Origin: Candidatus Woesearchaeota archaeon
GTDB lineage: Archaea > Nanobdellota > Nanobdellia > Woesearchaeales > SKIA01
DNA: 64,000 bases
Assembly (NCBI GenBank): GCA_046704725.1
Contig: JBJKRI010000006.1
Location: 128,001 to 192,000 of the forward strand
Reading direction: 5' to 3'
The position numbers were made by a program, and so were the translations under genes. The notes under the pieces are model-generated. The model made no database searches. It was given only the letters and a program-made list of their open reading frames with translations, and had not been told where the DNA came from. Positions 17,184 through 55,148 of the stretch are shown in pieces (the stretch's first letter is position 1; each line of letters begins with the position of its first letter).

Positions 17184-17585
17184 ATGCAGTGGAAACGGCT
17201 ACGCGAGCCCGTAGTAATAATCCCCCTGGGATACGTCATCACCCTCGGGGCGTTCCTCGCGCCGTCGTACCAGCGGCAAGTGAAAGCATCGCTGAAGGAT
17301 ACCTTGACCAACGACGTGCAGCATGCCCAGCAAGTGACCGGGGCGCTCGAGCGACGCCTTAATGATTCGCGCATCCCCATCGAGCACCGGGCACGGGCCG
17401 CGCCCTACGTGCAGAGCGCCGACTCATCGTTCAGATCGCTCGCCGAACGATTGCAGAGACCGTCGACGGACAGCATCAGCACCTACCAGGCCGAGGCGCT
17501 GCAGGCGTGCGACAACGCGCGGCGCGCCGAAAGACTGCTGCAGGACACGATATACTCCGGCTGCGCAACGCGCTCAGGGCTCTAG
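17184..17585 (+). CDS. Hypothetical membrane-anchored protein
   Basis: N-terminal TM, helical remainder; TTTAAA upstream. Confidence 0.5.
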   Translation: MQWKRLREPVVIIPLGYVITLGAFLAPSYQRQVKASLKDTLTNDVQHAQQVTGALERRLNDSRIPIEHRARAAPYVQSADSSFRSLAERLQRPSTDSISTYQAEALQACDNARRAERLLQDTIYSGCATRSGL

Positions 17586-23500: not shown

Positions 23501-24256
23501 CGTGCCGTTGAGGGCCGCGGTGGCGTTCATACTATAGAACAGCGAATTGTTGCCCGTGATATTGAAGGTCCACCGCAACTCCCCGTTCGTGTGGTTGTCG
23601 ACCGTAGGGGTCGGCGAGGATGACGTGTAATTGAGGTATGTCGGCGCATAATCGAGGTACAAGGTGAGGTTGCTGGCGTTCTGCGTCTGCAGGTTGGTGA
23701 CGTTGACGCTGATGTCGACGGTGTCGTTCACGTTCACGCTCGTCGGCATGGAGATCAGGACCTGGTATGACGGGCCGGTCGTTGTGATATTGAGGGGGAT
23801 CGTGACGTTCTTCAGCGAGACGTTGGATGAGTTACGAACATCAGCGTACGCTTGCGTGTTCCCGTTCTGCAGGGCGGTGTAGTTGGCCGCGACGATGAAG
23901 GATTGATTCGGTTGGAGGTTGAGGATGTTCCAGAGAATGTACTGACTGGAGTTCTGCGTGCTGTTGCCGTATGTGCCGTTGCTCGCGGTGAAGTTGAGGT
24001 AGCTCGTGTCCGTCATCTCCATGACGGTGAAGTTCGTGTAGTTGACGCTGTCGTTGTTGGTGAGGTTCAGGATGTAGCTGACTGTAGTACTGGGATGCGC
24101 AGGACCAGATATCTGGTACATGTGGAATTGGACGGCGCTCACAGCACCAATGCTCGCCAGAAGAAGGAGTACAGCGATAAATGCAGTCTGCGCGTTGCTT
24201 CGCTTGCTCTTCACTTTTCCCTCCGCTCCCGGAACGTGTAGCGCCCTCGCCTTCAT
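17582..24256 (-). CDS. Giant cell-surface glycoprotein with Ig-like/FN3 domains and a PGF-pre-PGF domain
   Basis: 2224 aa; signal peptide; many N-x-S/T sequons; Cys-rich blocks; poly-G linker; YEARTPGFSPFAV; C-terminal TM. Confidence 0.85.
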   Translation of the reverse strand: MKARALHVPGAEGKVKSKRSNAQTAFIAVLLLLASIGAVSAVQFHMYQISGPAHPSTTVSYILNLTNNDSVNYTNFTVMEMTDTSYLNFTASNGTYGNSTQNSSQYILWNILNLQPNQSFIVAANYTALQNGNTQAYADVRNSSNVSLKNVTIPLNITTTGPSYQVLISMPTSVNVNDTVDISVNVTNLQTQNASNLTLYLDYAPTYLNYTSSSPTPTVDNHTNGELRWTFNITGNNSLFYSMNATAALNGTTSVNATLKDENGTNLTNDSRSITINTAPGGQGPQSNYSPLWSHAQSAKFLAAAANFTFPGAPYVARGPGCYRNPQYAGSFTTPGENCCNTHSSNGTDACNGKGDVNYDTAAVWTEQQGDYMAWHISGPFAVSSNMSVCDGTNKSVAFVVEFDIDNNQSTGCNPNNESCYPGSDYQIWYFPDSNKTLFTQHNPNGSDSNGISFYANTSISANDTFIYYNCSATDPKEQGITLVVNKTAAFGNITPKLNFETNTFNVSQHTANPIDFLTNFGGVGSQNYSSFLVNGPPPDQGACYLFDHTNASSCVNNTKNYKCVWQAFNSTDGLCNPDFKAFNSTAGCFVIKNSTSCNDNANNGIGDCQWQSSVSLPNGSTGMCTEQFNPSQITGGSCDAACGSCFTQDQCANSNANGGKDWGGCQWYNDTFNPGGWCDIKGLKTTCAANPADCYTNTTCAAAGWNWNSTWSVCQSAPNTEICFNGVDDNGNGLVDCADPQCANALSCGGNLNTLTGPYQGLTGTQALKMKLGEGMGKILRLKADPPDNASSNVSIGGFGIAISTYGMGVGMMMHNLTDLKACGGNITDMKFMYLIDTDANASTGCNVTVNSVNYTGFEYMLKYGNYTQVNESGQEKLFYACYNGTWVVRDAALSPATMSTGPNQSQSTPVECSPQQSAAAVMIAQSSLGNPTGNMRFMGAVINGSWSNVSNLSAYDAISNVYYTPGTMDVKPVDCFQNPSSCGATFALLGQGNFMPVEDCIAPGDENGNGLVNCADPDCELAPQCKGSYNVSADVTRPTIQTSNGNQFTNGAVVRWVSSEPTNGSILFYKNDSTCSTLNSTIVDLGPQNVANDVFRPWHQLFLGQKTLNYSLTPNSTYFYRIQNIDYANNTGLSACINFTTASSAASTAVMFNFTPNGTPSSYLGNLSIIVNGTSYNTNSTLTFGQNYVDVNLTLRNPNANASTNWSITFEDVDLTDTSLLDLSGDLIAQAQGNSTLIGIGHSAWSTLAQKLGAQSIELQIPYPGDKLYHCADNGTNCTDISNSPGVQLLSTTAMSSTWQVPASFGFSSYTAGSTTYTLVYANQTTDNLSALVDANTSMLFSANNTMNTSETYNFSVDAPPGVSAWLNGSTTRNSVAIASNATESFNLTVSANASGVYPISVLATLANNSSVVLNSSQDINITLNATAPPTSTISAPANDSWTNDSTPQITFTLTDDYSSSINYTVFVDGSSSATGNATNNTAKSVNLSSLADGTHNVVVQATDDAGNSVNSTSLTLHVDSTAPTAAILSPSSGVSVNTTTPTVRINVSDNIADPINYTLFVDGSASLSGNASSGVAENLTPTLAQGNHSLVLQATDDAGNAINTSATAVTVDTTAPSITINAPANGSNTSTSVGFNFTLTDNLASTINYTLYVNGTANGTGQMANGTMVLNRTLAAGLYDWSVSAVDEAGNAVSSATQTFTAVNLSVPNQTVFTVADTDHDGNVELNWTNVTDAVSYKVYRKASSFSNLSGLSALATVSGLDYTDNTTVSNTTYWYAVTTVNSLGHENTTFTAQNVTANDTIAPSSPTSLNATTNTDGSVALTWTAVTNDTAGNAETHGNVYYIYRTTNVSALNTSNTSAALNTSTSASYTDTNATTGTNYIYVVVVKDDGGNLNSTLGPTNNVSITPAACTTTYTYGSWSACSSSSQSRTGTRTCYGGGNTTDTQTQSCTSSTGGGGGGGGGGYVTLPSAVSKVATQTWGLLSAGGSNTWTVPASNVSVMRIAFQVNETLAYASMTIGQTSAPHPVGRPVYQYFDINTTGLPDSSLVGDATIRFSVPKSWITSHGYSVYGVVLLHYVNGWQQLPTGVVSQNSTSVTYEARTPGFSPFAVSFAASNTPTTQPSTNSTITQQPPTKPGTPPPEQNPNASNSTPPKNVTNTTATPPPPSGGNGWIGWVLLAIAVIAIGAYAWHEYRAHRPPKSPPNEGWEHAMDQAPSFEQQS

Positions 24257-35938: not shown

Positions 35939-37369
35939 TCAGCCCTTCAGCACGCCCAAAGGCACCAAGCGCACGACAGGACGTGCGATGCCTGCCTGCT
36001 CCGTCACGCGGATGACCTCGTCCACATCCTTGTAGACCATCGGGGCCTCCTCGGCCACGCCTTTCATGGAGGCCGCCTTGACATGGATGTGGCGTTGGAG
36101 GAGATCCTTAGTCACCTGCTGTCCATGGAAACGCTTCTTGGCCTGTGTGCGCGACATCAAGCGACCGGCGCCGTGCGCCGAGGAGCCGAACGTCTCGCTC
36201 ATGGCCTTTTCCGTGCCGATGAGGATGTAGGAGGCCGTTCCCATGGAACCAGGGATGAGGACGGGCTGGCCGAACGAGCGGTACACCCCGGGCACCTCCT
36301 CTCGCCCTGCAGGAAAAGCGCGCGTCGCGCCCTTGCGATGGACGAAGACATCCACCTTTTTGCCGTCGACCACGTGGGTCTCGCGCTTGGCGATGTTGTG
36401 CGCGATATCATAGACCTGCTTGACAGAGCAGCCCGGGAACAATCGGGAGAAGGCCTTCCGCACCTGGTGCGCGATGACCTGCCGGTTGCAGAAGGCGAAG
36501 TTCGCCGCGGCCCGCATCGCGCCGAGATAGTCATTGGCGACCGTCGAGGACAGGGGCGCGTAGGCGAGATTCTTCTCCGGCAACGCAGCCATGATATCGG
36601 GGAAGGTACGCTCGATCTCACGCAGATAGTCCGTGCAGACCTGATGGCCCATACCGCGGCTGCCGCAATGGATCATGACGCAGACCTGGCCCTCGTGCGT
36701 GATGCCGAAGGCCCTCGCTGCTTCCTTGTCCTGGATGCTCTCGACGACCTGCACCTCTAGGAAATGATTGCCCGCGCCCAGAGTGCCGAGCTGGTTCATG
36801 CCACGTCCCTTCGCACGGTCGGAGACCTTGGCAGGGTCGGACGCGTCGAAACGGCCGTTCTCCTCCGTGCGCTCGATATCCTGCTCGGTCGCGAAACCAT
36901 GGGAGAGCGCCCAACCGCTTCCTTCTCGAAGCACCTCATCGAGCTCCTGCCTGGAGAGACGGATACTGCTCTTGACGCCCACGCCGACCGGAACGGACTG
37001 GGCGAGGAGCTCGAGCAGGGCTTCGATGCGCTCCTCCACGACATCCGCATCAAGGTCGGTCGCGAGGACGCGCACGCCACAATTGATGTCGAAGCCGATC
37101 GCTCCAGGTGAGACGATGCCGTCCTTCGCGTCGAAGGCGGCGACGCCTCCGACCGTGAAGCCGTAGCCCACGTGCATATCGGGCATGCCGAGAGCGGCGC
37201 CCACGACACCAGGCAGGCCAGCGGCGTTCTCCACCTGCTGGACGGCAGAATCCTCGACCATATCATGGAGCTTCTCAGACAAAAAGAGCTTTCCCGGAAC
37301 ACGCATCTTCCCGCTCTTCGGGAGGACATACGTGACATCGGATGTCTTTTTGAGCCGCTCTTTCGCCAT
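35939..37369 (-). CDS. rtcB: RNA-splicing ligase RtcB
   Basis: MPDMHVGYG, DINCGVR, GNHFLE, HRKGAT, PGSMG, HGAGR. Confidence 0.97.
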   Translation of the reverse strand: MAKERLKKTSDVTYVLPKSGKMRVPGKLFLSEKLHDMVEDSAVQQVENAAGLPGVVGAALGMPDMHVGYGFTVGGVAAFDAKDGIVSPGAIGFDINCGVRVLATDLDADVVEERIEALLELLAQSVPVGVGVKSSIRLSRQELDEVLREGSGWALSHGFATEQDIERTEENGRFDASDPAKVSDRAKGRGMNQLGTLGAGNHFLEVQVVESIQDKEAARAFGITHEGQVCVMIHCGSRGMGHQVCTDYLREIERTFPDIMAALPEKNLAYAPLSSTVANDYLGAMRAAANFAFCNRQVIAHQVRKAFSRLFPGCSVKQVYDIAHNIAKRETHVVDGKKVDVFVHRKGATRAFPAGREEVPGVYRSFGQPVLIPGSMGTASYILIGTEKAMSETFGSSAHGAGRLMSRTQAKKRFHGQQVTKDLLQRHIHVKAASMKGVAEEAPMVYKDVDEVIRVTEQAGIARPVVRLVPLGVLKG

Positions 37370-41793: not shown

Positions 41794-42419
41794 TTCGTCA
41801 CCTCGAACAACGACTCGTAGAAGTCCTCGATGTGCTTTCCGAACTTCGCGCTGATACCGACGATCTTGTACTGCGGGAACGCCGCCTGGATGCGTTTCAG
41901 ATCGGATTTCTTGAGGTCCGTCTTGTTCGCGACGAGCAGTACCGGGATGTCCCGTGCCTGCAGGTTGCCCACGATCGTGATGTTGACCTGACTGTAGGGG
42001 TCCTTGGTGGAGTCCAGGACGACGATGACCGCGTCCATGTCGTCGAGCCACTTGATGGCGTCGATGACGCCCTTGGTCGCTTCCTTGGCGCGGGACTTGG
42101 CGTCCTTCTCCTTCATGCCCGACTTGATGAACTCCTCGTAGTCGATCTTCGTGGCGATACCAGGAGTGTCGACGAGGTTGAAGGTGAGCTCACGGCCGTC
42201 CTTGCTCTTGATGGTCACACTCTCCTTGATCTGGACCTCGCGCGTCTCGTGCGCCATGCTCGAGACGGATCCCATCTCCTCGCCGAGCCAGTCCTCGCAG
42301 ATACGGTTCGCGAGCGTGGTCTTGCCGCCGTTCGGAGGACCGTACAGGCCGAGCTTGACCTGCTTCTTACCGCCGAACAGGTCGCGGAAAAGTGACTTCA
42401 GGAAGCTGGTCAGGCTCAT
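41790..42419 (-). CDS. Era-like GTP-binding protein (OapA)
   Basis: GLYGPPNGGKTTLANRI, HETR, DTPG, ANKTD, ISA. Confidence 0.9.
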   Translation of the reverse strand: MSLTSFLKSLFRDLFGGKKQVKLGLYGPPNGGKTTLANRICEDWLGEEMGSVSSMAHETREVQIKESVTIKSKDGRELTFNLVDTPGIATKIDYEEFIKSGMKEKDAKSRAKEATKGVIDAIKWLDDMDAVIVVLDSTKDPYSQVNITIVGNLQARDIPVLLVANKTDLKKSDLKRIQAAFPQYKIVGISAKFGKHIEDFYESLFEVTK

Positions 42420-43033
42420 GGATAGAGATAAACCCGCTCCGTGCTCATCACGTCAGGCGTGTCGAACTCCGTCGTGGTCGGGGTGCCGATCTTCGGGATG
42501 AAGCTGATGCGCACATGCTGTCCTTCGCCGATCTTGTTGGTCACGTTGAAGTACAGCTTAATCACGTCGCCACGGACGAGGACGCCATTCTGGTGCGAGG
42601 GCCCCTCCTGCATATATTCCACCGTGAAGTTCCCAGTCTTGCCGGACACCTGTACACAATCCACCGCAGTGGTGTTCGTGCCACAGTATGCAGAGGCGTT
42701 AGTGAAGTTCCGGTAGTTGTACGTGATCGAGTCGGTGGATGTCGAGTAGGTCAATGTCACGTCAGCAAGCTTAATGGGGTCGCTGCCCGGAGCCAGCTTC
42801 ATGACTTCGGAGAAGGCATTGATTCCCGCAGTGTCTGAACCGTTGGTGGCGGAGACCTCAAGCACCAAGGCGTTGGTGCTGATTTGGCTCGTGGCCTGCG
42901 TGCCCGTGGAGAGGGCACGTTGCTGCAGGCTTCCCGCGGTCTGTATGAGCACTCCGGCCGCAACAGCCGCGACCAGCAATAGCGATATGAAGATTATCAG
43001 CGTCCCTACACCCATCTCTGCTTTTCGGTTCAT
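42416..43033 (-). CDS. Archaellin (archaeal flagellin)
   Basis: Class III signal KA/EMGVGTLIIFISLLLVAAVAAGVLIQT. Confidence 0.88.
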   Translation of the reverse strand: MNRKAEMGVGTLIIFISLLLVAAVAAGVLIQTAGSLQQRALSTGTQATSQISTNALVLEVSATNGSDTAGINAFSEVMKLAPGSDPIKLADVTLTYSTSTDSITYNYRNFTNASAYCGTNTTAVDCVQVSGKTGNFTVEYMQEGPSHQNGVLVRGDVIKLYFNVTNKIGEGQHVRISFIPKIGTPTTTEFDTPDVMSTERVYLYP

Positions 43034-43111
43034 GATGTCTCTGGGTCTCCACCGTCGCAGTAGTATATAAAGCTTTTCGTGTTTTCGGAAAGAGGAAAAG
43101 GAAAAGAGAGT

Positions 43112-43750
43112 TCAGGGATACAAGTAGACCCGCTCGGTACTGATGACATCCGGCGTGTTGAACTCCACGAGGGTCGGGGTACCGATCTTCGGGATGAAGT
43201 TTATCCGGACGGCCTCGTCCTGGGCGATGGAGAACGGCGCGTCGAAGTATACCCGGATGACATCGCCACGCTGGAGGTTCCCATCGAGGTGATTGGTCCC
43301 ATTGATCAGATAGTCCACCGTGAAGTTGCCAGTGTACGAACCGGAGCCCGCGGAGGCGGTCCCCGCACACTGGCTCGCAGTGAGGTTCGCGGTGGCGTTC
43401 GAGCAATAGACCGAAGTATTGGTCGGGGCCCGATAAATCAGTGTCGTGGTCGAGTTCACCGTGTTGAACGTCAAGGTGACCTCGCTGAGCTTGATCGGAT
43501 CGGAGCCGGGACTCAACTTCATCTGCATCGAGAAGTTCTCCACCGTCTGGTCCGTGCCATCCACTGCCGAGACCTCGATGACCTTCGCGTTGGTGGATAT
43601 CTCACCCTTCGATTGCTGGCCCGTCGATAGGGCCTTCTGCTGGAGGCTGCCAGTGGTCTGCAGGAGAACACCTGCAGCGACCGCGGCGACCAACAGCATA
43701 GCAATAAAGATAATGAGGGTGCCGACACCCATCTCCGCACGTCTACTCAT
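43112..43750 (-). CDS. Archaellin
   Basis: RA/EMGVGTLIIFIAMLLVAAVAAGVLLQT. Confidence 0.88.
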   Translation of the reverse strand: MSRRAEMGVGTLIIFIAMLLVAAVAAGVLLQTTGSLQQKALSTGQQSKGEISTNAKVIEVSAVDGTDQTVENFSMQMKLSPGSDPIKLSEVTLTFNTVNSTTTLIYRAPTNTSVYCSNATANLTASQCAGTASAGSGSYTGNFTVDYLINGTNHLDGNLQRGDVIRVYFDAPFSIAQDEAVRINFIPKIGTPTLVEFNTPDVISTERVYLYP

Positions 43751-44325
43751 GGATACAGGTAGACCCGCTCCGTGCTGATGACATCCGGCGTGTCGAATAT
43801 CACCCGCGTGGACGTGCCGATCTTCGGGATGAAGTTCAGACGCACATAGGCCCCTTCACCGATGGAACTCGGCGCGAGGAACTGCATCTCGACCACATCG
43901 CCGCGCACCATGACACCGTTCTGGTGGTTCGCGCCCTGCTGCAGGTACGTGACCACGAACGTCCCGTTCTGGTCCGTCGCGTTCACCGAAGGCGTGCTCG
44001 ACGCATTGTCATAGATGTACGTCGTCGTCGTGTTGACCGTGTTCAGCGTCAGCGTGGAATCGCCCAGCTTGATTGAATCGCTTCCCGGTGCGAGCTTCAT
44101 GATCATCGAGAAGTTCTCGATGTTCTGGTTCGTCCCGTCGACCGCACTGACCTCAAGCACGACAGCGTTCGTGCTGATCTGGCTCGTGGCCTGAGAACCG
44201 GTGGACAACGCTCGTTGCTGGAGGCTCCCAGCAGTCTGTATAAGCACTCCTGCAGCCACCGCGGCGACGAGCAGGAGAGATATGAAGATTATCAGGGTTC
44301 CGACGCCCATTTCTCCTTTTCTCAT
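43747..44325 (-). CDS. Archaellin
   Basis: MRKG/EMGVGTLIIFISLLLVAAVAAGVLIQT; GGAGTGA RBS upstream. Confidence 0.88.
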   Translation of the reverse strand: MRKGEMGVGTLIIFISLLLVAAVAAGVLIQTAGSLQQRALSTGSQATSQISTNAVVLEVSAVDGTNQNIENFSMIMKLAPGSDSIKLGDSTLTLNTVNTTTTYIYDNASSTPSVNATDQNGTFVVTYLQQGANHQNGVMVRGDVVEMQFLAPSSIGEGAYVRLNFIPKIGTSTRVIFDTPDVISTERVYLYP

Positions 44326-44490
44326 TACTATCACTCCATGCAGGGTCTCTCCCCTGCTCTCTCCACGTCGAACCTGAAAGTGGTCGTATTTAAACTTTCC
44401 TACACTCCGAAAAACACAACCAGACCCCGGAAAGCCCTGTTCCCAAACACCACGACAAGCAATAAGAACCGTCGCGCGTTCCACAAAGCG

Positions 44491-46191
44491 ATGCGCAAGC
44501 CGACCGACATCCCAAACGCTCCAGGAGTATACCTGTTCTCGGACGCGGACGGCGCGATCCTCTATGTGGGCAAGGCGGCGAGCCTGAAGAAACGACTGGC
44601 GAGCTACTTCCGAAAGGACGTGGACGACAAGACGCGACGCATGCTTGAGAAAGCAGCGCAGGTCGACACGATCACCGTGCGCAACGAGGTCGAGGCGCTC
44701 CTGCTCGAGAACCGGCTCATCAACCAACACATCCCGCCGTACAACATCATGCTCCGCGAGAGCAGGCGATACGCATGGATACTCGTCACGGACGAGCGGT
44801 TCCCAAGGATCCTGACCGCGCGCAACAAGCGACGGCGTGGACACTATTACGGGCCGTACACGGACGGGACGGCGCGACGGGCGATCGTGCTCGGTCTCAA
44901 CAAGGCCTTCCGATTGCGGACCTGCCGGACACTGCCCAAACGCGTCTGCCTGCAATACCACATCGGCAACTGCACCGGACCGTGCGAGGGACACGACACG
45001 AAAGAGGAATACTCGCGAAGGGTGAGGGATGCCGAAGCGGTGCTTCAGGGAAAGACACGTGCGCTCGTCGCGCGCTTGGAGAAAGAGATGCGCGACGCAT
45101 CGGCGAAGCAACGCTTCGAGCAGGCGAAGACCGTGCGGGACACGATCGCCGCGCTCGAGCGCCTGGAGACGACGCAGGTCGTCGAGCGCGAGGAGACCCA
45201 CGACCAGGACGTCATCGGGAACGCGTCGAACGAGGAGGAGGTCTTCGTCGTCTTGTCCGTGCGGCGCGGCGTCATCGCTCGAAAGCGCGAGTACCGGCTG
45301 CCCCAGGCGCCCGACGCCCAAGAGACGTTCCTCACGGCATTGTACCGCGAGGCGATACCGCCAAAAGAGATCATCGTGGGCGGGCTGAGCGAGGAACGGG
45401 CAAGAACGCTCGCAACATACTTCTCGAAGCTCGTGGAGGGCACGGTGAACGTGACCGTACCGCAGCGAGGCGACAAGCGACGATTGCTGGAGCTGGCACA
45501 GCAGAACGCGACGCTCGCGCTGACACGGGAGGATCCGGGCCTTGCGAGCCTGCAGAAGCGACTGAACCTCGCCGCGGCGCCGGAGACGATCGACTGTTTC
45601 GACATCTCAACGCACCAAGGGGCGGAGACGGTGGCGGCGAGCGTGCGCTACCGCAACGGCAAACCCGACCCGTCGGAGTACAGGCACTTCATCATCCGCG
45701 ACGCTGTGCACGACGACTTCGCCTCCATGCGCGAAGCGGTGTCCAGAAGGTATGCTAGTTCACCGTTACCGGACCTGATCGTCATCGACGGCGGCAACGG
45801 ACAGCTGTCGGCGGCGGGAGTGGCATTGGCCTCGCAAGACCATGTGACGGTCATAGCGCTCGCGAAGAAAGAGGAGGAGATCTACGTGCCCGGACTGTCG
45901 TTTGCGCTACGCATGGACGACAAGGATCCAGGGCTCTTATTGTTGCGGCGCATCCGGGACGCGACGCACCGCTTCGTCATCGGGCACCACCGCGGGCGGC
46001 GGCGAAAAGCCATGAGCGCGAGCATGCTCGACCACGTGTCCGGCATCGGAGCGGCGAGAAAAGACAAGCTCTACAAGCGCTTCGGGACGTTCGAGCATAT
46101 CGCGGAAGCGAGCAAGAAAGAACTGCAGGATGTATTGGGGGAGAGGACCGGAACCCACTTATACAAGCGATTGCACGACGCAGCGCGATGA
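44491..46191 (+). CDS. uvrC: Excinuclease ABC subunit C
   Basis: GIY-YIG (PGVYLF..LYVGKA), Cys cluster, DCFDIS, DLIVIDGG.GQ, HhH. Confidence 0.95.
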   Translation: MRKPTDIPNAPGVYLFSDADGAILYVGKAASLKKRLASYFRKDVDDKTRRMLEKAAQVDTITVRNEVEALLLENRLINQHIPPYNIMLRESRRYAWILVTDERFPRILTARNKRRRGHYYGPYTDGTARRAIVLGLNKAFRLRTCRTLPKRVCLQYHIGNCTGPCEGHDTKEEYSRRVRDAEAVLQGKTRALVARLEKEMRDASAKQRFEQAKTVRDTIAALERLETTQVVEREETHDQDVIGNASNEEEVFVVLSVRRGVIARKREYRLPQAPDAQETFLTALYREAIPPKEIIVGGLSEERARTLATYFSKLVEGTVNVTVPQRGDKRRLLELAQQNATLALTREDPGLASLQKRLNLAAAPETIDCFDISTHQGAETVAASVRYRNGKPDPSEYRHFIIRDAVHDDFASMREAVSRRYASSPLPDLIVIDGGNGQLSAAGVALASQDHVTVIALAKKEEEIYVPGLSFALRMDDKDPGLLLLRRIRDATHRFVIGHHRGRRRKAMSASMLDHVSGIGAARKDKLYKRFGTFEHIAEASKKELQDVLGERTGTHLYKRLHDAAR

Positions 46192-47339: not shown

Positions 47340-48740
47340 CTACGACGAGGAAAAATCCTCCGCAGTCCAACGCGCGTAGAACGCGTCCACGGCCCGTTCC
47401 ATATAGCGCAGTCTCGCCGGACTGCCGCGTTCCGGACTCATGAAACGTTGCAGGGAGTCTTTCGGAACAGCATATATCTCCGGGCGTGAGGATCCCACCA
47501 CCTTCACGCCGACCTCTCTCAAGTACTCCAGCACGTGATGCGTATTCCGACGGACGCCCTCGAATCCATGCATGTCCTTGCTCGTGAACAGCATGAACGG
47601 TTTTCCGGAGATACTGTTGAACAGGCTTCCACGGATCTCCTCACGCATCCGCCCGTATATCGATGATTCATTGTCTAGCGCGAGCGGCAGCTCTTCCTCT
47701 GTCAGGTACAGCACGCCTTGCGGTAGAGCACCCCCAGTAACGAACCCTCCGCGCAAGCGACCTTCTCGTATTCTTGTCTCAAGCGTCGGTTTGCGGAGGG
47801 CTCCCGGAAGGGACCCGAAGTGCTTCGTGGTGACAAGAAGGACTCCTGGCGAGTACCAGCCCGGCAGGCCGTCGAGCGTTGACAGGCCTCCTTCGTACGC
47901 TCCCACAGAAGTCTCTACAGGATGGAGCTTGGGCTGGTGGCCGTTCATGGAGATGTCATCGACATCGATATGCCCTTCCCATCGGTTCACTATGCTGCGC
48001 ATCACGACGGCGTGGAGCTCCCGCACGTTGCCCGGCCACGCCTCATTTTTGAGTCGCTCCACCGCCGCTTCGGTGAAGCCGAGGGTCTTCGCCTCGAAAT
48101 GGCTGCGCGTGCGTGCATGGAGATATGCCACGATCTCCGGAATATCATCCGGTCGCTCGCGCAATGGCGGGACGATGATCTCGTACTGCGCGATGCGATG
48201 GAAGAGGTCCCGACGGAATCCGTCCTCGAACGCGTCGCGCAGCGATGCGTTGGTCGCGGAGAGCACGCGGGTGACGACCTTCTGCGGCAAGGTATCTCCG
48301 ACCGGAATGATAAGGTCCTCCTCAAGGAAGCGCAGGAGCTTTGGTTGGAGCTGGGGCGGCATGTCGCCTATCTCATCGAGGAACAACGTCCCTCCTTCAG
48401 CTGCCTTCACGAAGCCCTTGCTGTCCGAGCTCGCCCCGGTGAACGCGCCCTTGCGGTGCCCGAACAGCGTCGACTCCGCAAGATCCAGAGGGAGGGCCGA
48501 GCAATTCACGGCGACGTACGGATTCATGGCGTTGGGACCGAGATGATGGAGGGCACGGGCGACGAGCTCCTTGCCGACGCCAGTCTCTCCCTGGATGAGC
48601 ACACGGATGTCGAGCTGTGCCAGGCGGCGTATCTGTTCATAGAGCGTCTGCATCGGTGCGGAAGAGCCGATAATCCGAAAATCGGTTCCGGGAATCTGCA
48701 AGGACCGCATGATTCCACGAGTCAATAGTGACGTATTCAA
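47340..48740 (-). CDS. Sigma54-interaction (bEBP-type) AAA+ ATPase with unrecognised C-terminal domain
   Basis: GETGVGKE, ESTLFGHRKGAFTGA, GTLFLDEIG, FRRDLFHR, WPGNVREL. Confidence 0.88.
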   Translation of the reverse strand: MNTSLLTRGIMRSLQIPGTDFRIIGSSAPMQTLYEQIRRLAQLDIRVLIQGETGVGKELVARALHHLGPNAMNPYVAVNCSALPLDLAESTLFGHRKGAFTGASSDSKGFVKAAEGGTLFLDEIGDMPPQLQPKLLRFLEEDLIIPVGDTLPQKVVTRVLSATNASLRDAFEDGFRRDLFHRIAQYEIIVPPLRERPDDIPEIVAYLHARTRSHFEAKTLGFTEAAVERLKNEAWPGNVRELHAVVMRSIVNRWEGHIDVDDISMNGHQPKLHPVETSVGAYEGGLSTLDGLPGWYSPGVLLVTTKHFGSLPGALRKPTLETRIREGRLRGGFVTGGALPQGVLYLTEEELPLALDNESSIYGRMREEIRGSLFNSISGKPFMLFTSKDMHGFEGVRRNTHHVLEYLREVGVKVVGSSRPEIYAVPKDSLQRFMSPERGSPARLRYMERAVDAFYARWTAEDFSSS

Positions 48741-49243: not shown

Positions 49244-49388
49244 ATGCCCAGAAACACGGTCTTCTCGCTCAAAGCGCCACAAGCCGGCGGGCGGGCAGCC
49301 CGAAGCCATCAAGGAGCTGCTGGACGGCTACAAGAAGCAGCAGAAGCAGACCCTGCTCGGCGTGACCGGATCAGGCAAGACATTCTTC
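49244..49388 (+). pseudogene. Frameshifted, truncated copy of the uvrB 5' end
   Basis: Nucleotide match to 53226-53352 with a 2-nt deletion (GCGCC--ACAAG vs GCGCCGTACAAA); similarity ends just after GSGKTF. Confidence 0.85.
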
Positions 49389-49467
49389 TTGACGAAGTCA
49401 AGACTATCTGTCCGAAGGACGCGGGCACTTCCGTTTTTATGCTAAAATAGCTCGGATTCCAAAATTG

Positions 49468-49526
49468 AACTAACAGACGGGTTGAGCGCGTTGTGAAACA
49501 ATACGTGCTAGTCATTTGTTAATGGC
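49468..49526. repeat. attC-like site 1
   Basis: AACTAACAGACGGGTTGAGCGCGTTGTGAAACAATACGTGCTAGTCATTTGTTAATGGC. Confidence 0.8.
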
Positions 49527-49617
49527 TTGTAAGTGATTTTTAGTGCAAGATACTCAATGAAAGCGCAAGAATTATATAATAGAAAAGGATACATTTCTGT
49601 ATCAATAGGTGATGTAA

Positions 49618-49893
49618 ATGTCTGCTATTCTAGATGCGGATCCGAAGCACTGGCCCACGCTAAACACAGTGATCATGGTAGAGCAAACAATAAACAAGCT
49701 CGACGATAGTATCGTCACTGTTCCTCAAATCAAACGCGCGTTGCCACGAAAAGTCAACCATAATACCCTCAAACTCATCCTCAAGTACTTAGAGGAAAGT
49801 AACAAGATCGCCGTAAGCATAGATGGAATTACCTGGATCCACAATCAGAATCAAAAGCTACAACGAGCGATTCAATCAGGTTTAGAGCTGTGA
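49618..49893 (+). CDS. Cassette 1 putative antitoxin (winged-helix-like)
   Basis: 91 aa; GTGA overlap with a RelE-like gene. Confidence 0.6.
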   Translation: MSAILDADPKHWPTLNTVIMVEQTINKLDDSIVTVPQIKRALPRKVNHNTLKLILKYLEESNKIAVSIDGITWIHNQNQKLQRAIQSGLEL

Positions 49894-50243
49894 AACGAGC
49901 ACGCATTATTTTATCTCCAGAAGCAGAAGAGGTCTACAACTATCTGAACAAAGAGGCAAGCAAGTCAAAAACAGAGCGCGCAATACTGAATGCCTTCAAC
50001 AAGAAAAAAGATCTGATCAAGAACAACATCCACTATGGTGAACCGATCGCAAAAAGCAAAATTCCTGAGGCGTACAAGAAATCGTATGGAGTGACGAATT
50101 TATTCTGGGTAGACTTGCCGGATGCGTGGAGGATGCTGTATACGCTGACAAACGATGAATCTCAGATTGAGATTATCGCATTTGTGCTGGATATCTTCGA
50201 TCACAAAGCATACGAGAAAAAAATGGGATACAAGAAGAGCTAA
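49890..50243 (+). CDS. Cassette 1 putative RelE-like toxin
   Basis: Basic protein; NLFWVDLPDAWRMLYTL...DHKAYEKKMGY. Confidence 0.6.
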   Translation: MKRARIILSPEAEEVYNYLNKEASKSKTERAILNAFNKKKDLIKNNIHYGEPIAKSKIPEAYKKSYGVTNLFWVDLPDAWRMLYTLTNDESQIEIIAFVLDIFDHKAYEKKMGYKKS

Positions 50244-50280
50244 TCATTGCCAACCTTGCAACTTCTGAAAATCACGTATT

Positions 50281-50339
50281 GCCACTAACATACGGGTTGA
50301 GCGCGTCCTGATAGGATGCGTGCTAGTCGTTGTTATGGG
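50281..50339. repeat. attC-like site 2
   Basis: GCCACTAACATACGGGTTGAGCGCGTCCTGATAGGATGCGTGCTAGTCGTTGTTATGGG. Confidence 0.85.
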
Positions 50340-50417
50340 TTGCTGCCGATATGCCAGGCGCAGTCTTTGAATTTCGCGAATTGATACTATTATAAAGGAG
50401 GAACATACTGTGTTAAC

Positions 50418-50864
50418 ATGGATTTTGCGTACGAAGGAGATTACACCTACGGTCACACTCGGGGCACCACGAAAGGTTATGTTCGGCTCGGAGAAGCGGG
50501 AAAGCTTGTTGGCATTGTACGAGATGACGGAGGGCAACGAAAGTTCCTCGTCGGCCATCACACAGACAACAGAGTAGAATTCTTCAAAATTCCCGAACTG
50601 CCACTCAGCGTTCGCTCTTTAGGATACAGCGCAAAAGGAACTCCAGACTCCAGCTACGATGCGCAGTGGGGAGTCATCCCCGTATTTTCAGACGTAGCAG
50701 TTTCATGGAGCAATGTACTCTTTGATCTTCGAGATGTGGAATCAGACCGAGACCTTGATTTCTTGGATGCAGTGGACTTGGATGACATTGTTCGCGCGTC
50801 CGAACAAATAGCTGAAGTCAATCCATCCACAGATACTGCATCTTTCCGACTTAATCCACTATAA
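50418..50864 (+). CDS. Cassette 2 hypothetical protein
   Basis: Single ORF between sites 2 and 3; TTATAAA upstream. Confidence 0.65.
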   Translation: MDFAYEGDYTYGHTRGTTKGYVRLGEAGKLVGIVRDDGGQRKFLVGHHTDNRVEFFKIPELPLSVRSLGYSAKGTPDSSYDAQWGVIPVFSDVAVSWSNVLFDLRDVESDRDLDFLDAVDLDDIVRASEQIAEVNPSTDTASFRLNPL

Positions 50865-50936
50865 ACCCCATTTTCAATCGTGTTCGTCATGGAGTCAAAT
50901 GAAGTGCCTGAACTCCTGAAAGCATATCTGCATTTT

Positions 50937-50994
50937 CCCATAACATACGGGTTGAGCGAGTCGCTTGCGATGCGTGCTAGTCATTGTTAATGGC
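50937..50994. repeat. attC-like site 3
   Basis: CCCATAACATACGGGTTGAGCGAGTCGCTTGCGATGCGTGCTAGTCATTGTTAATGGC. Confidence 0.85.
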
Positions 50995-51104
50995 TGTCGT
51001 ATTGAACGTGCGCGGAGGTGCGGAGAGGCCCAAGAACACAATGTTCCCATTAAATAGTAGTTAGTTACCGGTATGTTTATAAGTACTGTTTTCTTTCCTC
51101 CTGT

Positions 51105-51596
51105 ATGTCGCTATTAGAGGAGTTAGTAGCTGAATACGCCCTTGATATCGATGGTGTTATTCTAGAGGATGTGGTACAGAAGCGATACTCCACACTCATC
51201 CAGAACGGATCGATAGACGCCATGACCTCGCTACGCGAAGCAACAGGAATCAACCCTGCAGAGGAGGTGGTACAGAACGGATACTCCACACTCATCCAGA
51301 ACGGATGGATAGACGACATGACCTCGCTACGCGAAGCAACAGGAATCAACCCTGCAGAGGAGGTGGTACAGAACAGATACTCCACACTCATCCAGAACGG
51401 ATGGATAGACGACATGACCTCGCTACGCGAAGCAACAGGAATCAACCCCAAGGTCCCAGAGGATGTGATACAGAACAGATACTCCACACTCATCCAGAAC
51501 GGATGGATAGACGACATGACCTCGCTACGCGAAGCAACAGGAATCATGCCGAATGAAGAGAATGCAAGAGCGTACGTCGCGCATCTCATGGAATAA
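51105..51596 (+). CDS. Cassette 3 tandem-repeat protein
   Basis: Four ~32-aa repeats of EEVVQNRYSTLIQNGWIDDMTSLREATGINP. Confidence 0.7.
   Translation: MSLLEELVAEYALDIDGVILEDVVQKRYSTLIQNGSIDAMTSLREATGINPAEEVVQNGYSTLIQNGWIDDMTSLREATGINPAEEVVQNRYSTLIQNGWIDDMTSLREATGINPKVPEDVIQNRYSTLIQNGWIDDMTSLREATGIMPNEENARAYVAHLME
51165..51546 (+). repeat. Intragenic tandem repeat, four copies of ~96 nt
   Basis: Units start at 51165, 51261, 51357 and 51459. Confidence 0.9.
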
Positions 51597-51630
51597 CTGT
51601 TACCCGCAAAAACGCACGAACACACGTATT

Positions 51631-51689
51631 GCCACTAACATACGGGTTGAGCGCGTCCTGATAGGATGCGTGCTAGTCGTTGTTAGTTG
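51631..51689. repeat. attC-like site 4
   Basis: Core identical to site 2; ends GTTAGTTG. Confidence 0.85.
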
Positions 51690-51765
51690 GTGTTGCTCTC
51701 GATAATTCTTCAATTTTTTCGTGTGAATCAATTTGATTTATATACTGTCTTTGCGTTGAGCCACT

Positions 51766-52203
51766 ATGATTATCCGTACTGCCACAATTGATGATTGTGT
51801 TGCTTGCGAATCCCTTAGTAAGATTCCTGAATTGTTAACTCCAGAAGGTCAGCACGTTGTCAAGGAGTACTTCGAAGTGCTAGTGGATGATGATGAATTG
51901 TTTATTGTAGCGGAAGAGCAACAGCAGATTGTCGGATATGTTGTTGGCGAGCCCATGAAAGCTAATCAAGCATTCATCAGTCTGTTGGTAGTTGATCCAC
52001 ACTTTCGGCGAAGAGGTATTGCGAAACAACTACTTGATGAATTTAGAACCCGCTGCGATACTAAAGGACTGAGATACATTTCATTATTCGCTCCTTCGTT
52101 CAATGAAGCAACGCTTGAATTCTACACAAAAGCAGGTTTCACTCGCGGAGAATCCTACATCTTGTTCAGCGAAAGCAGAATGCCCGATACCGAACAAAGG
52201 TGA
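51766..52203 (+). CDS. Cassette 4 GNAT acetyltransferase
   Basis: IRTAT.DD, VDPHFRRRGIAKQL, N.A..FY.K.GF. Confidence 0.88.
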   Translation: MIIRTATIDDCVACESLSKIPELLTPEGQHVVKEYFEVLVDDDELFIVAEEQQQIVGYVVGEPMKANQAFISLLVVDPHFRRRGIAKQLLDEFRTRCDTKGLRYISLFAPSFNEATLEFYTKAGFTRGESYILFSESRMPDTEQR

Positions 52204-52236
52204 AGGTCTTTGAGAGGTTTTCTGAAAGCACAATGA

Positions 52237-52312
52237 CAACTAACATACGTTATGGCGGACGCTTTGCGCCCGCGAACCATGGATGTTAGGCCTAACCGGA
52301 GACATTCCGGTT
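52237..52312. repeat. Divergent attC-like site 5 plus candidate attI
   Basis: CAACTAACAT...ATGTTAGG hairpin with similar spacing, then GTTAGG|CCTAAC and AACCGGA-GACAT-TCCGGTT. Confidence 0.6.
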
Positions 52313-52355
52313 TTATCCACAATGAACTATTGAAGTTTGTTTCGAGCGGTGGAGC

Positions 52356-53195
52356 ATGGTTACAGAGGACGTCGAGCGCCGTCTGCTTAAGCAACTGGAG
52401 GATATCTGCGCTCTCAAGGGCCTAAGCGGCCAGACTGTCCGTGCGTACTCCTCAGTCCTGGCTCAGTATTTTGCGTATCTTCGACACAAGGAGACAAAAC
52501 TCGGCCATGAAAGTGTGAAAGACTACTTGCTAACGCGTAAGGTCAACCCGAATTCGTTGCGCCTGCACCGCGCGGCGCTGCAGTTCCTCTTCACCCACAT
52601 CCTGGACAGCCCGTTCTCCTTCAATCAGATACCGATCAAGAAAAGGCCAAAACAGCTCCCCAAGGCGCTCAGCAGGCAAGCGGTCAAGACGATGATCGAC
52701 TCGACAGAGAACCCCAAGCACAAGCTCATCGTGCAACTGCTCTATTCCTGCGGCCTCCGACTGTCGGAACTGGTCAATCTCCGACGGGACGACATCGATT
52801 TCGACCGCGGACTGGTCCATGTCAGGAAGGGCAAAGGCAGCAAGGATCGCTACACCACGATCTCGCAGTCCCTGCAGTCAGCTCTCCTCCGATACTACGC
52901 CACGAACACCTTCGCCACCCCCTATATCCTCGAAGGAAGGAATGGCAAGTACTCGAAGAAATCGGTGCAGAAGGTCGTCGAGCAGGCAGGCAAGCGCGCG
53001 GCCGTTAAAGCCACGCCCCACACGCTGCGCCACTCGTTCGCCACACACCTCTTGGAGGCGGGCGTCTCTTTACGCCATATCCAGCAGCTCCTCGGCCACG
53101 CGAGCCTTGACACGACCCAGGTCTACACCCACATCGCGAACAGCGACATCGCCGCGATCCCAAATCCATTGGACCGTCTCGAACGCAACGCCTAA
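52356..53195 (+). CDS. Tyrosine recombinase/integrase (XerD/IntI-like)
   Basis: SAM-like N-terminus; YSCGLRLSE, KGKGSKDR, HTLRHSFATH, LLGH..L.TTQVY. Confidence 0.93.
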   Translation: MVTEDVERRLLKQLEDICALKGLSGQTVRAYSSVLAQYFAYLRHKETKLGHESVKDYLLTRKVNPNSLRLHRAALQFLFTHILDSPFSFNQIPIKKRPKQLPKALSRQAVKTMIDSTENPKHKLIVQLLYSCGLRLSELVNLRRDDIDFDRGLVHVRKGKGSKDRYTTISQSLQSALLRYYATNTFATPYILEGRNGKYSKKSVQKVVEQAGKRAAVKATPHTLRHSFATHLLEAGVSLRHIQQLLGHASLDTTQVYTHIANSDIAAIPNPLDRLERNA

Positions 53196-53219
53196 AACCC
53201 GCGCCCCATTCTCACCCAC

Positions 53220-55148
53220 ATGCCATTCTCGCTCAAAGCGCCGTACAAACCGGCGGGCGGACAGCCCGAAGCCATCAAGGAGCTGCTGGAGGGCTACAAG
53301 AAGCAGGAGAAGCAGACCCTGCTCGGGGTGACCGGCAGCGGCAAGACCTTCCTGATGGCGAACGTCATCCAGGCGCTGGGCAAGAAGACATTGGTGCTCG
53401 CGCACAACAAGACGCTCGCCGCGCAACTGTGGAGCGAACTGCGCGAACTGTTCCCCGAAAACGCCGTGGAGTACTTCGTGAGCTACTACGACTATTACCA
53501 GCCGGAATCCTACCTGCCGCAGACGGACACCTATATCGAGAAGGACAGCAGCAAGAACGACGTGATCGACGCGTTGCGCTTGCGCGCGACGGCCAACCTC
53601 TTGTCGCGCGACGACGTCATCGTCGTGGCGTCCGTGTCGTGCATCTACGGCTTGGGGGACCCGGAGGACTGGGAGGAACTGAGCCTGCATATCGAGAGAG
53701 GAGAGAGCATGAATAGGCAAGGGCTCATCAAGGGCCTTGTGGACATGCAGTACGAGCGAAACGACACGCAGCCCCAGCGCGGACAGTTCCGCGTGACAGG
53801 CGACACGGTCGAGGTCGTGCCGGGATACCAGGACGAGCACGTGCGCATCGAATTGTTCGGCGACGAGGTCGAACGCATCAGCATCAGGCACCACGTCACG
53901 GGAGAGGAGATCGAGCGCGCCGAGCGCATCGTCTTGTTCCCGGCAAAGCATTTCGTGACGACAGAGGAGAAGCAAGAGCGCGCCATCGCGGGCATCAAGG
54001 AGGAGCTGGAGGGGTACTTGCCCACGCTCGGACCGCTCGAGCACGAGCGCCTGGAGCGGCGCACGAGGTTCGACCTGGAGATGATCGAGGAACTGGGGTA
54101 CTGCAACGGCATCGAGAACTACAGCAGGCACTTCTCCGGGCGCAAGGAAGGGCAGCCGCCGCACACCCTCTTGGACTTCTTCGGGAAGGACTGGCTGCTC
54201 ATCGTGGACGAGAGCCACCAGACATTGCCGCAGGTGCACGCCATGGCGCACGGCGACCGCAGCCGCAAGGAGCCGCTCGTGGAGTACGGCTTCCGGCTGC
54301 CCAGCGCTTTCGACAACCGGCCGTTGACCTTCGAGGAGTTCGAGGGCCGCATGCCGACAACAATGTTCGTCTCCGCGACGCCGGGCGAGTACGAGACCAA
54401 GACGAGCGGCAACCTCGTGGAATGCGTCATCCGGCCGACAGGGCTCTTGGACCCCCACATCACCGTCAAGCCCACGAAAGGGCAGATAGACGACCTCATC
54501 AGCGAGGTGCACAAGACCGTCGAGGACGGGAACAAGGTCTTGGTGACCACGCTCACCAAGAAGATGTCGGAGGATCTGACGAACTACCTCGCGCGGCGCG
54601 ACATCCGGGTGCGCTACCTGCACAGCGAGATCGAGACGCTCGAACGCACGGAGCTCATCCGGCAATTGCGGGCGGACGAGATCGACTGCATCGTCGGCAT
54701 CAACCTGTTACGGGAAGGGCTCGACATCCCCGAAGTGTCGTTGGTGGCAATCCTGGATGCGGACAAGGAAGGCTTCCTGCGCAACGAACGGTCTCTCTTG
54801 CAGACCATCGGCCGGGCCTCGCGCAACAAGGACGGGCGCGTCATCATGTACGCGGACAAGACGACGGACTCGATGCGGCGCGCCATCACCATAACGCACG
54901 AGCGCCGTGCATTGCAGGAGAAGTACAACACAGAGCACGGCATCACGCCCAAGACCATCGTCAAGGCGGTGCCCGAGCAGCGCGTGGCCATGAAGGACAC
55001 CAAGCACATCCCAGACGCTGATGTGGAGAAGACGATCGAATCCTTGCGCGAGGAGATGGCCGCGGCGGCCGAGCAGTTGAACTTCGAGCTCGCCATCGAG
55101 ATACGCGACCGCATCAAGGAACTGGAGAAACGGCTGGAGAAGCGATAG
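53220..55148 (+). CDS. uvrB: Excinuclease ABC subunit B
   Basis: GVTGSGKT, FVSYYDYYQPE, DESH, GINLLREGLD, C-terminal UVR domain. Confidence 0.97.
   Translation: MPFSLKAPYKPAGGQPEAIKELLEGYKKQEKQTLLGVTGSGKTFLMANVIQALGKKTLVLAHNKTLAAQLWSELRELFPENAVEYFVSYYDYYQPESYLPQTDTYIEKDSSKNDVIDALRLRATANLLSRDDVIVVASVSCIYGLGDPEDWEELSLHIERGESMNRQGLIKGLVDMQYERNDTQPQRGQFRVTGDTVEVVPGYQDEHVRIELFGDEVERISIRHHVTGEEIERAERIVLFPAKHFVTTEEKQERAIAGIKEELEGYLPTLGPLEHERLERRTRFDLEMIEELGYCNGIENYSRHFSGRKEGQPPHTLLDFFGKDWLLIVDESHQTLPQVHAMAHGDRSRKEPLVEYGFRLPSAFDNRPLTFEEFEGRMPTTMFVSATPGEYETKTSGNLVECVIRPTGLLDPHITVKPTKGQIDDLISEVHKTVEDGNKVLVTTLTKKMSEDLTNYLARRDIRVRYLHSEIETLERTELIRQLRADEIDCIVGINLLREGLDIPEVSLVAILDADKEGFLRNERSLLQTIGRASRNKDGRVIMYADKTTDSMRRAITITHERRALQEKYNTEHGITPKTIVKAVPEQRVAMKDTKHIPDADVEKTIESLREEMAAAAEQLNFELAIEIRDRIKELEKRLEKR

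Follow-up and report, generated by a model that had tools for sequence, protein, structure and literature searches.

What defines an integron, and allows it to be detected, is the IntI-specific domain of its integrase; folded attC sites are held not to recombine without this domain. Xer-type enzymes can also act on folded DNA: XerCD integrates the folded single-stranded DNA of a phage (the attP hairpin of CTX-φ). Here we describe a recombinase gene in a 64,000-nucleotide (nt) stretch of DNA from a Candidatus Woesearchaeota archaeon (NCBI GenBank assembly GCA_046704725.1, contig JBJKRI010000006.1, positions 128,001 to 192,000 of the forward strand). We will call this entire stretch the window. 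The gene encodes a Xer-like tyrosine recombinase of 279 amino acids (aa), lacks the insertion that is found in IntI, and adjoins an array of five hairpin sites. We propose that this enzyme probably serves a cassette system of DPANN (Woesearchaeota-type) archaea as its dedicated recombinase, and that the system is integron-like but non-canonical. Our proposal is based on the missing insertion, the separate clade that the protein belongs to, the sites that lie next to recombinase genes across that clade, the conserved and covarying fold of these sites, their strand bias, and the lack of a canonical IntI.

The locus resembles an integron in several ways. The recombinase gene is at the end of an array of co-oriented imperfect palindromes, which separate accessory cassettes of one or two genes each. 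At their ends, the sites look like R boxes (..TAAC / GTTA..), with another paired box next to these. There is also evidence that one strand folds, the guanine-plus-cytosine (GC) content of the array is below that of the host, and a GNAT protein and a toxin-antitoxin-like pair are among the cassettes. The sites are 49–52 nt long in the window and 84–173 nt long in its relatives, whereas classical attC sites are 57–141 nt.

In other respects the locus differs from integrons. The recombinase has no IntI-specific domain and is outside of the IntI clade. Most of the sites form a three-way junction, within which the GAAG and TTTGG motifs never vary and one G-T pair is conserved. As for the bulged bases, they occupy the 5' arm of the apparently folding strand. 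Furthermore, the cassette genes of the relatives are in both orientations, no attI is defined, and the site nearest to the recombinase is a full site that is often longer or degenerate.

Two other kinds of Xer-type enzymes are worth comparing. Archaeal XerA (Pyrococcus abyssi, PDB 4a8e; Thermoplasma acidophilum, PDB 5hxy; family NF040815) has a similar length, the same two-domain fold and catalytic residues, and the same C-terminal PLD motif, but the window's enzyme is an accessory paralogue with its own clade signatures, and it is linked to arrays of sites rather than to a single dif. As a precedent, XerCD, which are Xer-type enzymes that lack IntI's insertion, act with CTX-φ on a site rebuilt by the folding of one strand. 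In that case, however, a housekeeping pair of enzymes joins one phage site to the chromosomal dif, while here a dedicated paralogue lies beside arrays of many sites.

Ghaly et al. (2022) reported attC arrays in 75 archaeal genomes and only six IntIs, all of which have the IntI domain (PMC9668308). For Woesearchaeales and Pacearchaeales, the same paper lists metagenome-assembled genomes that have 2–4 attC sites but 0 IntI. A review of archaeal tyrosine recombinases touches on integrons only in passing in the sections that we consulted (PMC8371274). Elements in the rulB gene of Pseudomonas plasmids have been called integron-like: they have Xer-type integrases and insert site-specifically into a DNA-repair gene (PMC4542609). 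Unlike the locus that we consider here, they are bacterial and apparently not built from cassette arrays with hairpin sites. Among open-access papers and bioRxiv preprints, we found no description of a Xer-like recombinase tied to such arrays.

An intact recombinase with a plain Xer fold

The open reading frame (ORF) is an intact tyrosine recombinase. It matches Pfam's Phage_integrase (PF00589, E = 2.6e-38, residues 108–261) and an N-terminal SAM-like domain, and in an alignment with 19 relatives, R135, K160, H222, R225, H248, and Y257 are invariant columns. These are the catalytic R-K-H-R-H-Y residues that an earlier note on this DNA, made from the sequence by a model, had described as intact.

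The earlier note had also claimed that one segment of the protein leads straight to the HTLRH motif, without the insertion of IntI. The segment (residues 189–208) is PYILEGRNGKYSKKSVQKVV, and the chain continues to PHTLRH at residues 221–226. When aligned to the integron integrase VchIntIA (PDB 2a3v), the protein's match is split in two: residues 21–177 align to 16–177 of the chain, and residues 203–275 align to 246–320. Between these, 25 residues of the recombinase are opposite 68 residues of VchIntIA, so about 43 are skipped. Similarly, the integron integrase family TIGR02249 matches in two stretches with 190 bits (the cut-off is 265). In a six-frame search of the genome, the recombinase covered positions 1–177 and 239–315 of this profile and skipped 178–238. 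As positive controls, two real IntI proteins matched TIGR02249 in one stretch each, with 508.6 bits (IntI1) and 530.2 bits. Another family, NF011946, gave 126.8 bits (the cut-off is 435). The alignment to XerA from P. abyssi (4a8e), which is the best solved relative, is a single unbroken stretch (residues 11–264, E = 2.7e-49).

An AlphaFold2 model (built with 13 relatives; predicted local distance difference test score of 85.8) has no helix between those at 171–183 and 201–214, just a short strand region. In Foldseek, VchIntIA (320 alignment columns, gapped) and XerA (268 columns) share the same rank. The recombinase has two domains with the plain fold of Xer proteins and no I2-helix region like that of IntI, and what the earlier note had observed about the protein was correct in all particulars.

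Hairpin sites in the window and in related archaea

The five sites in the window (S1–S5, Table 1) span 49470–52288. All of them have TAACA...TGTTA ends, and S1–S4 are imperfect palindromes of 50–52 nt. The sites are 555–815 nt apart and bound four cassettes with low GC content: GC is 0.39–0.54 in the array, 0.55–0.62 in the recombinase gene, and 0.60–0.62 in the contigs of the genome. S5 ends 67 nt upstream of the recombinase's start codon. The recombinase thus adjoins an array of at least two attC-like sites that are less than 4 kb apart, as is expected of an integron at the level of the system. As single-stranded DNA, S2 and S4 fold far better than shuffled sequences on the + strand (Table 1); on the – strand, the z scores are –2.0 and –2.9. 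The motif of the sites' left arm, with up to two mismatches, is found nowhere else in the genome. All four of the gene units between the sites are on the + strand. NCBIfam and PADLOC gave no names to the cassettes' proteins except for a generic GNAT.

In close relatives (see below), structured sites of 84–173 nt lie upstream of the recombinase gene, on the same strand. From 5' to 3', these sites have TAACA, a bulge of 1–3 nt, a stem of about 10 base pairs (consensus GATTAAGAG/CTCTTAATC), GAAGT, a hairpin, ATTTGG, a second hairpin, the closing stem, and TGTTA. The sites of the window and those of its relatives have the same ends, a T that bulges out, and in part the same second box (G.TT.AG.G / C.T..TA.TC). 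They differ in the terminal structure, which is a single short hairpin in the window's sites and a three-way junction in most relatives. The features that are expected of attC sites (boxes, a bulge, and covariation) are present, but the bulge is on the other arm, and the inner motifs are conserved in sequence.

To describe the relatives' sites, we built a covariance model (R1) from nine seed sites. Compensatory changes are found in 14 of the 27 pairs of the seeds' consensus fold. R1 matched 38 sites at E ≤ 1e-5 in the loci that we fetched, and at E ≤ 1e-4, sites are present in 17 of 41 genomes of the order (this genome and 40 relatives). Across the 38 sites, whose alignment was fitted to R1 and is thereby biased towards structure, 95.5% of cells are paired, compared to 36–52% if the partners are slid by 1–3 columns. 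Both sides have changed in 19 of the 27 pairs, and none of 500 shuffles reached any of these measures. One pair is G-T in 36 of the 38 sites, and the GAAG and TTTGG motifs are invariant. The conserved G-T pair and the invariant motifs suggest that there are sequence-specific contacts beyond the structure.

The strands of the sites are not equivalent. Mini-hairpins with a GNA triloop and a 3-base-pair stem occur in or just after the sites 56 times on the strand that is sense for the recombinase and 11 times on its complement; in 500 shuffles, the mean was 8.6 and no count was above 18. The commonest triloops are GAA (26), GCA (21), and GTA (9). Yoshizawa, Hirao and colleagues reportedly found in 1997 that GNA triloops closed by C-G form exceptionally stable mini-hairpins in DNA. 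The strand bias of the mini-hairpins argues against a purely duplex site or a cruciform. We also noticed that C-GAA-G, T-GCA-A, and C-GTA-G mini-hairpins cluster where a site has just ended and the next cassette begins (49391–49430 of the window; loci L026, L144, and L145). Marking a strand, priming, and protection are possible roles for them.

Within each of the seven arrays with multiple sites, the sites are co-oriented. The genes between the sites are diverse and accessory: they include an AbiEii-like ATPase, an SbcCD-like pair, Fic, methyltransferases, hydrolases, LemA, TrmB, and GNAT. In relatives, the site that is closest to the recombinase is often longer, and in four of nine cases its 3' box is degenerate (ATTAG, GATAA, or GTTC instead of TGTTA).

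We also considered that the conserved structures might be RNA elements on the recombinase's strand (for example small RNAs, or signals for processing or for 3' ends), and that their adjacency to the recombinase might reflect regulation or shared mobile ancestry. Covariation supports pairing within a single strand and cannot distinguish RNA from DNA, and the strand that folds better and bears the GNA loops is the recombinase's sense strand. But no family in Rfam matches the sites of the window or of four related loci. Furthermore, the sites have one orientation per array while the intervening genes point both ways, which is not expected of RNA signals that are linked to genes. Most of the loops are GNA triloops with C-G or T-A as the closing pair, which is the type found in DNA mini-hairpins, and not GNRA or UNCG tetraloops. 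Finally, the ends form an inverted TAACA/TGTTA core of the kind that tyrosine recombinases cut. Because of the fixed orientation of the sites among mixed genes, the lack of a match in Rfam, and the recombinase-type ends, we consider a role as RNA to be distinctly improbable.

A separate clade of recombinases that is linked to the sites

We found homologues of the recombinase in 34 of 40 genomes from the same order, and many of these have two paralogues. The closest relatives are 60% identical (from G001, in the same genus), 49% identical (G012 and G035), and 46% identical (G034 and G025). We inferred a maximum-likelihood tree for 71 recombinases of at least 240 aa, with shorter fragments dropped. 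Of these, 44 come from the order and its neighbors, 9 have the length of IntI, 9 are bacterial and lack the insertion, and 9 serve as further outgroups. The window's protein belongs to a clade of 17 rows (support 99/97) that is apart from both the XerA-like clade (27 rows, 95/89) and the IntI clade (9 rows, 100/100). So the suggestion in the earlier note of a separate clade holds. That note had suggested a system that is parallel or ancestral to integrons, and the tree fits either of these, since it does not resolve the order in which the three clades join. The clade has two sequence signatures, N-x-K-H-[KR]-L and E-G-R-x-G-K-Y-[ST]-x-K-S, and the second of these includes the segment that the earlier note had singled out.

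The sites are associated with this clade. In 11 of its 17 rows, there is a site on the same strand within 1.2 kb upstream of the recombinase. Eight of these are R1 matches with 47–80 bits (one is cut at the 5' side by the start of its contig), two are partial and low-scoring R1 matches that are cut by the ends of contigs (29.1 bits, and 20.5 bits with E = 0.18), and one is the window's own array. Another five rows have at most 205 nt upstream before the contig ends; many members of the clade are at the ends of contigs. In contrast, among the 27 rows of the XerA-like clade, 25 have no site within at least 1.2 kb, one is cut, and one (L133) has a site. The co-occurrence of homologues with hairpin arrays, which the earlier note had suggested as a check, is thus borne out.

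L133 (G021:C25 11874–12671) is on a long branch, with an R1-type site 386 nt upstream, and it forms a subclade with L137, L139, and L140. This subclade may be a second accessory group.

Could the window's protein be the housekeeping XerA, which resolves dimers at dif, and lie by chance beside an orphan cluster of attC sites lacking an integron integrase (CALIN), with the cluster serviced, if at all, by an IntI in trans? NF040815 (XerA_Arch) is the protein's best match in NCBIfam, with 219.2 bits, which is just 0.8 below the cut-off of 220, and XerA from P. abyssi is its best solved relative. Also, the published attC arrays of archaea are mostly CALINs (PMC9668308). However, the genome (1.18 Mb in 8 contigs, 99.7% complete, around 60% GC) contains four tyrosine recombinase genes, including the window's, and the XerA orthologue is another of these. 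This second gene, on contig C4 (G000:C4), is GC-rich and encodes a XerA-type protein of 267 aa that scores above the cut-off for NF040815 (221.3 bits) and is 38% identical to the window's recombinase. The remaining two (390 and 167 aa) are only remotely related. In the tree, the C4 gene clusters with the single XerA-like gene of each of four sister species (G001–G004), so we conclude that the window's protein is an accessory paralogue and not the host's housekeeping XerA. Full-length members of the window's clade are present in just 16 of 41 genomes (along with a 160-aa fragment that was kept out of the tree), and the adjacency to sites is specific to this clade. As for an IntI in trans, no protein reached the cut-off of TIGR02249 in any of the 41 genomes (a six-frame search of this genome and a search of 40 relatives, the latter without an internal positive control). 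We therefore rejected both the housekeeping XerA and a CALIN that is serviced by a canonical IntI as very improbable indeed; the earlier note had named each as grounds for abandoning its idea.

The clade of the window's recombinase is large. In a large protein collection, 884 of 8000 scored candidates matched at E ≤ 1e-40. Most of the 120 that were listed are around 275 aa and are on short contigs, and their source names include XerD, tyrosine-type recombinase/integrase, and "site-specific tyrosine recombinase/integron integrase". More than 100 of the listed clusters have identities of 47–73%, and the nearest homologues carry the name Candidatus Woesearchaeota. A scan of metagenomes with the protein gave a best match of 42% identity and no close relatives with context. 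Among the matches listed from a scan of genome contigs with a generic peptide pattern, there was one locus from Woesearchaeota, cut 205 nt upstream, as well as proteins from bacteria that lack the insertion and whose best segments are up to 46% identical. Among those listed matches, we found no R1 sites in the bacterial loci. In a scan for repeats in four of the bacterial loci (42–46% identical), the only notable pair was in L042 (57 nt, downstream of the gene).

These bacterial proteins (L039–L047, from contigs of Bacteroidota and Gemmatimonadota) have 305–396 aa and no IntI insertion, and most have an N-terminal extension of around 100 aa. The two that we scored, L040 and L039, are above the cut-off for NF040815 (234.9 and 224.9 bits), so this family's name is given to non-archaeal proteins as well.

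The unit between uvrC and uvrB, and its proposed role

The array and the recombinase form a unit of 3.8 kb (49391–53219) between uvrC and uvrB. The unit is flanked by the intact uvrB and by a decayed duplicate of its 5' end (Table 1). The duplication covers 143 nt (49262–49400 versus 53226–53367, 88.8% identical), and the homology ends with GGCAAGAC(A/C)TTC. Each of the window's two copies is closer to the other than to any orthologue. In G003 and G004, uvrC is followed by uvrB after around 480 nt, with no recombinase and no R1 site. In G001, uvrC is followed by two R1 sites and cassettes; another contig (C10) has the 60%-identical recombinase, a Bro-N gene, uvrB, and uvrA, and it ends 114 nt upstream of the recombinase. 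We found no overlap between the ends of contigs C7 and C10 of G001. The platform thus occupies the junction of uvrC and uvrB in the window's species and in G001, both of the same genus, whereas the junction is empty in G003 and G004. The Bro-N gene of G001 (L025, G001:C10 10184–11032) encodes 282 aa and lies between the recombinase and uvrB, with a 4-nt overlap with the start of uvrB.

Table 1. Features between the duplicated and intact copies of uvrB, in order along the window
Feature	Positions	Strand	Remarks
Decayed duplicate of the 5' end of uvrB	49244–49390	+	Distal edge of the inserted unit; own ATG at 49244; frameshifting 2-nt deletion
Two C-GAA-G mini-hairpins	49391–49430	+	Directly after the junction with the uvrB duplicate; of the kind found after sites elsewhere
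Site S1	49470–49521	+	Furthest from the recombinase; fold z –1.07, weak by itself
Cassette 1	49618–50243	+	Two overlapping small ORFs (91 and 117 aa), toxin-antitoxin-like arrangement; no family match
Site S2	50285–50335	+	Fold z –3.94
Cassette 2	50418–50864	+	148-aa ORF; no family match
Site S3	50940–50989	+	Fold z –0.47, weak by itself
Cassette 3	51105–51596	+	163-aa ORF; four tandem repeats of 96–102 nt, 91–100% identical; no family match
Site S4	51635–51685	+	Same sequence as S2 across the site; fold z –4.36
Cassette 4	51766–52203	+	GNAT acetyltransferase, 145 aa; NCBIfam matches all below cut-offs
Site S5	52240–52288	+	Proximal to the recombinase; CTAACAT...ATGTTAG ends, divergent inside; DNA fold –10.9 kcal/mol
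Recombinase	52356–53195	+	Array-associated, Xer-like tyrosine recombinase, 279 aa, without the IntI insertion; ATG start
uvrB	53220–55148	+	Intact; flank or target of the unit; starts 24 nt after the recombinase's stop codon

The duplicate suggests that the unit entered, or was inserted again, as a circle that carried the start of uvrB. On the simplest account, a circle would have been excised at a secondary site within uvrB, taking along the array, the gene for the recombinase, and about 45 codons from the start of uvrB, and it would then have re-entered by recombination within the uvrB homology.

An alternative is that the protein belongs to a small integrative element, as an integrase directed at the start of uvrB through classical double-stranded recombination of attP with attB, and that the hairpin repeats are cargo or regulatory sequences instead of substrates. 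This would fit the duplicate on the flank of a 3.8-kb unit with low GC content, the position of the recombinase gene at the edge that adjoins uvrB, and the uvrC-uvrB junction being occupied in G001 and empty in G003 and G004. However, we found no flanking duplications at six other loci of the clade, whose downstream genes differ, and no duplicate or remnant of uvrB in G001. Given the mutual similarity of the two copies of uvrB, it is more plausible that the lineage itself duplicated the sequence recently than that a mimic of attP came from outside. Across the clade, the recombinases are linked to the sites and not to uvrB, and targeting of uvrB would be compatible with action on the sites. So we think that this alternative is unlikely.

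Several other genes in the window caught our attention. Although the host is an archaeon, a protein of 466 aa (47340–48740, – strand) combines a sigma-54 interaction domain (PF00158, E = 6.4e-59) with an AAA lid. It is 10 kb from the gene for an RtcB ligase (35939–37369), and at E ≤ 1e-20 the four sister species had no homologue of it. One possibility is that it is an RtcR-like regulator of bacterial type, gained by transfer. Beside uvrC, there are three tandem paralogues of archaellin (42416–45321, – strand). A protein of 2224 aa with Big_13 domains is encoded at 17582–24256 (– strand).

Returning to the proposal of a dedicated cassette recombinase, we infer from the association with the sites, their covariation, and the chemistry of their loops that the enzyme acts on these sites, and on single strands. 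Each site has TAACA/TGTTA ends that do not vary and that pair as an R-box-like duplex. Its 5' arm has a short bulge, and beyond this come the second paired box and a terminal structure that is variable. The strand that is co-directional with the recombinase gene would fold, and the fold would rebuild a two-box core for dimers of the recombinase. Recombination of one site with another would then excise, insert, and reshuffle cassettes as in integrons. The contacts that IntI makes to extrahelical bases through I2 would play no part in this reaction.

Several observations weigh against this proposal. In the window, two of the five sites (S1 and S3) individually fold no better than shuffled sequences. 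R1, which was built from the relatives' sites, gave no match on the window's shorter sites. In 400 other genomes of the order, the left-arm motif (with up to two mismatches) had no signal: 10 genomes had one match each, with two mismatches, versus 18 for the reversed control. If the strand from TAAC to GTTA corresponds to the classical top strand, then the recombinase is at the opposite end of the array from what is expected. No equivalent of attI was defined, and in the window, the position closest to the recombinase holds a full hairpin site (S5). Among the relatives, the ORFs between sites in the seven arrays point both ways (19 with the sites and 26 against), unlike classical cassettes that are fed by a promoter, and the pairing statistics come from an alignment that was fitted to its own model. 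The association is also imperfect. One of the 17 members of the clade (L024) has no site in 971 nt, and a protein from the XerA-like clade (L133, above) has one. Among the 17 genomes with R1 sites, 9 (G004, G013, G017, G021, G026, G030, G036, G038, and G040) had no member of the clade among the matches, and the multi-site arrays G026:C4 and G030:C37 have no recombinase on the stretch that was fetched. The arrays without recombinases may be orphans, like the CALINs of bacteria, or the assemblies may be broken at the arrays. Finally, we found no product of recombination in the sequencing data, which comprised one DNA run with a tenth of the sampled words, in low-depth contigs, and no RNA run.

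Within that run, some contigs had joints from 49319–49385 to 53387–53483, and we considered that these might be recombinants, but they were the uvrB genes of other organisms that match both copies. In another contig (run X1, depth 2.8), the left arm of S1 (49492) is joined to the right arm of S3 (50970), and the 9 letters of the loop between them differ. Either S3 varies between strains or two cassettes were lost by recombination; the contig's shorter side is 22 letters, which is too weak to count.

We view the locus as an integron-like cassette platform with a plain Xer-type integrase, for which catalysis, the strand used, and the crossover point are predictions. More tentatively, we suggest that DPANN archaea may perform integron-type gene capture with a plain Xer-fold integrase, and that folded single-stranded sites may be recombined without the IntI-specific domain. 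Such platforms may have arisen at least twice, or before the insertion was acquired, and many archaeal CALINs (and perhaps those of the candidate phyla radiation or Bacteroidota) may have a resident integrase that the current detectors miss.

If a clade of short Xer-like recombinases is indeed tied to arrays of hairpin sites, then the definition of integrons misses an entire class of platforms for gene capture. This would explain why integrases are nearly absent from beside the published attC arrays of archaea (six IntIs in 75 genomes, PMC9668308). The recombinase would also be a minimal enzyme for studying how folded-DNA sites are recognized. And for the reduced genomes of DPANN archaea, the arrays would be a concrete route by which genes flow in.

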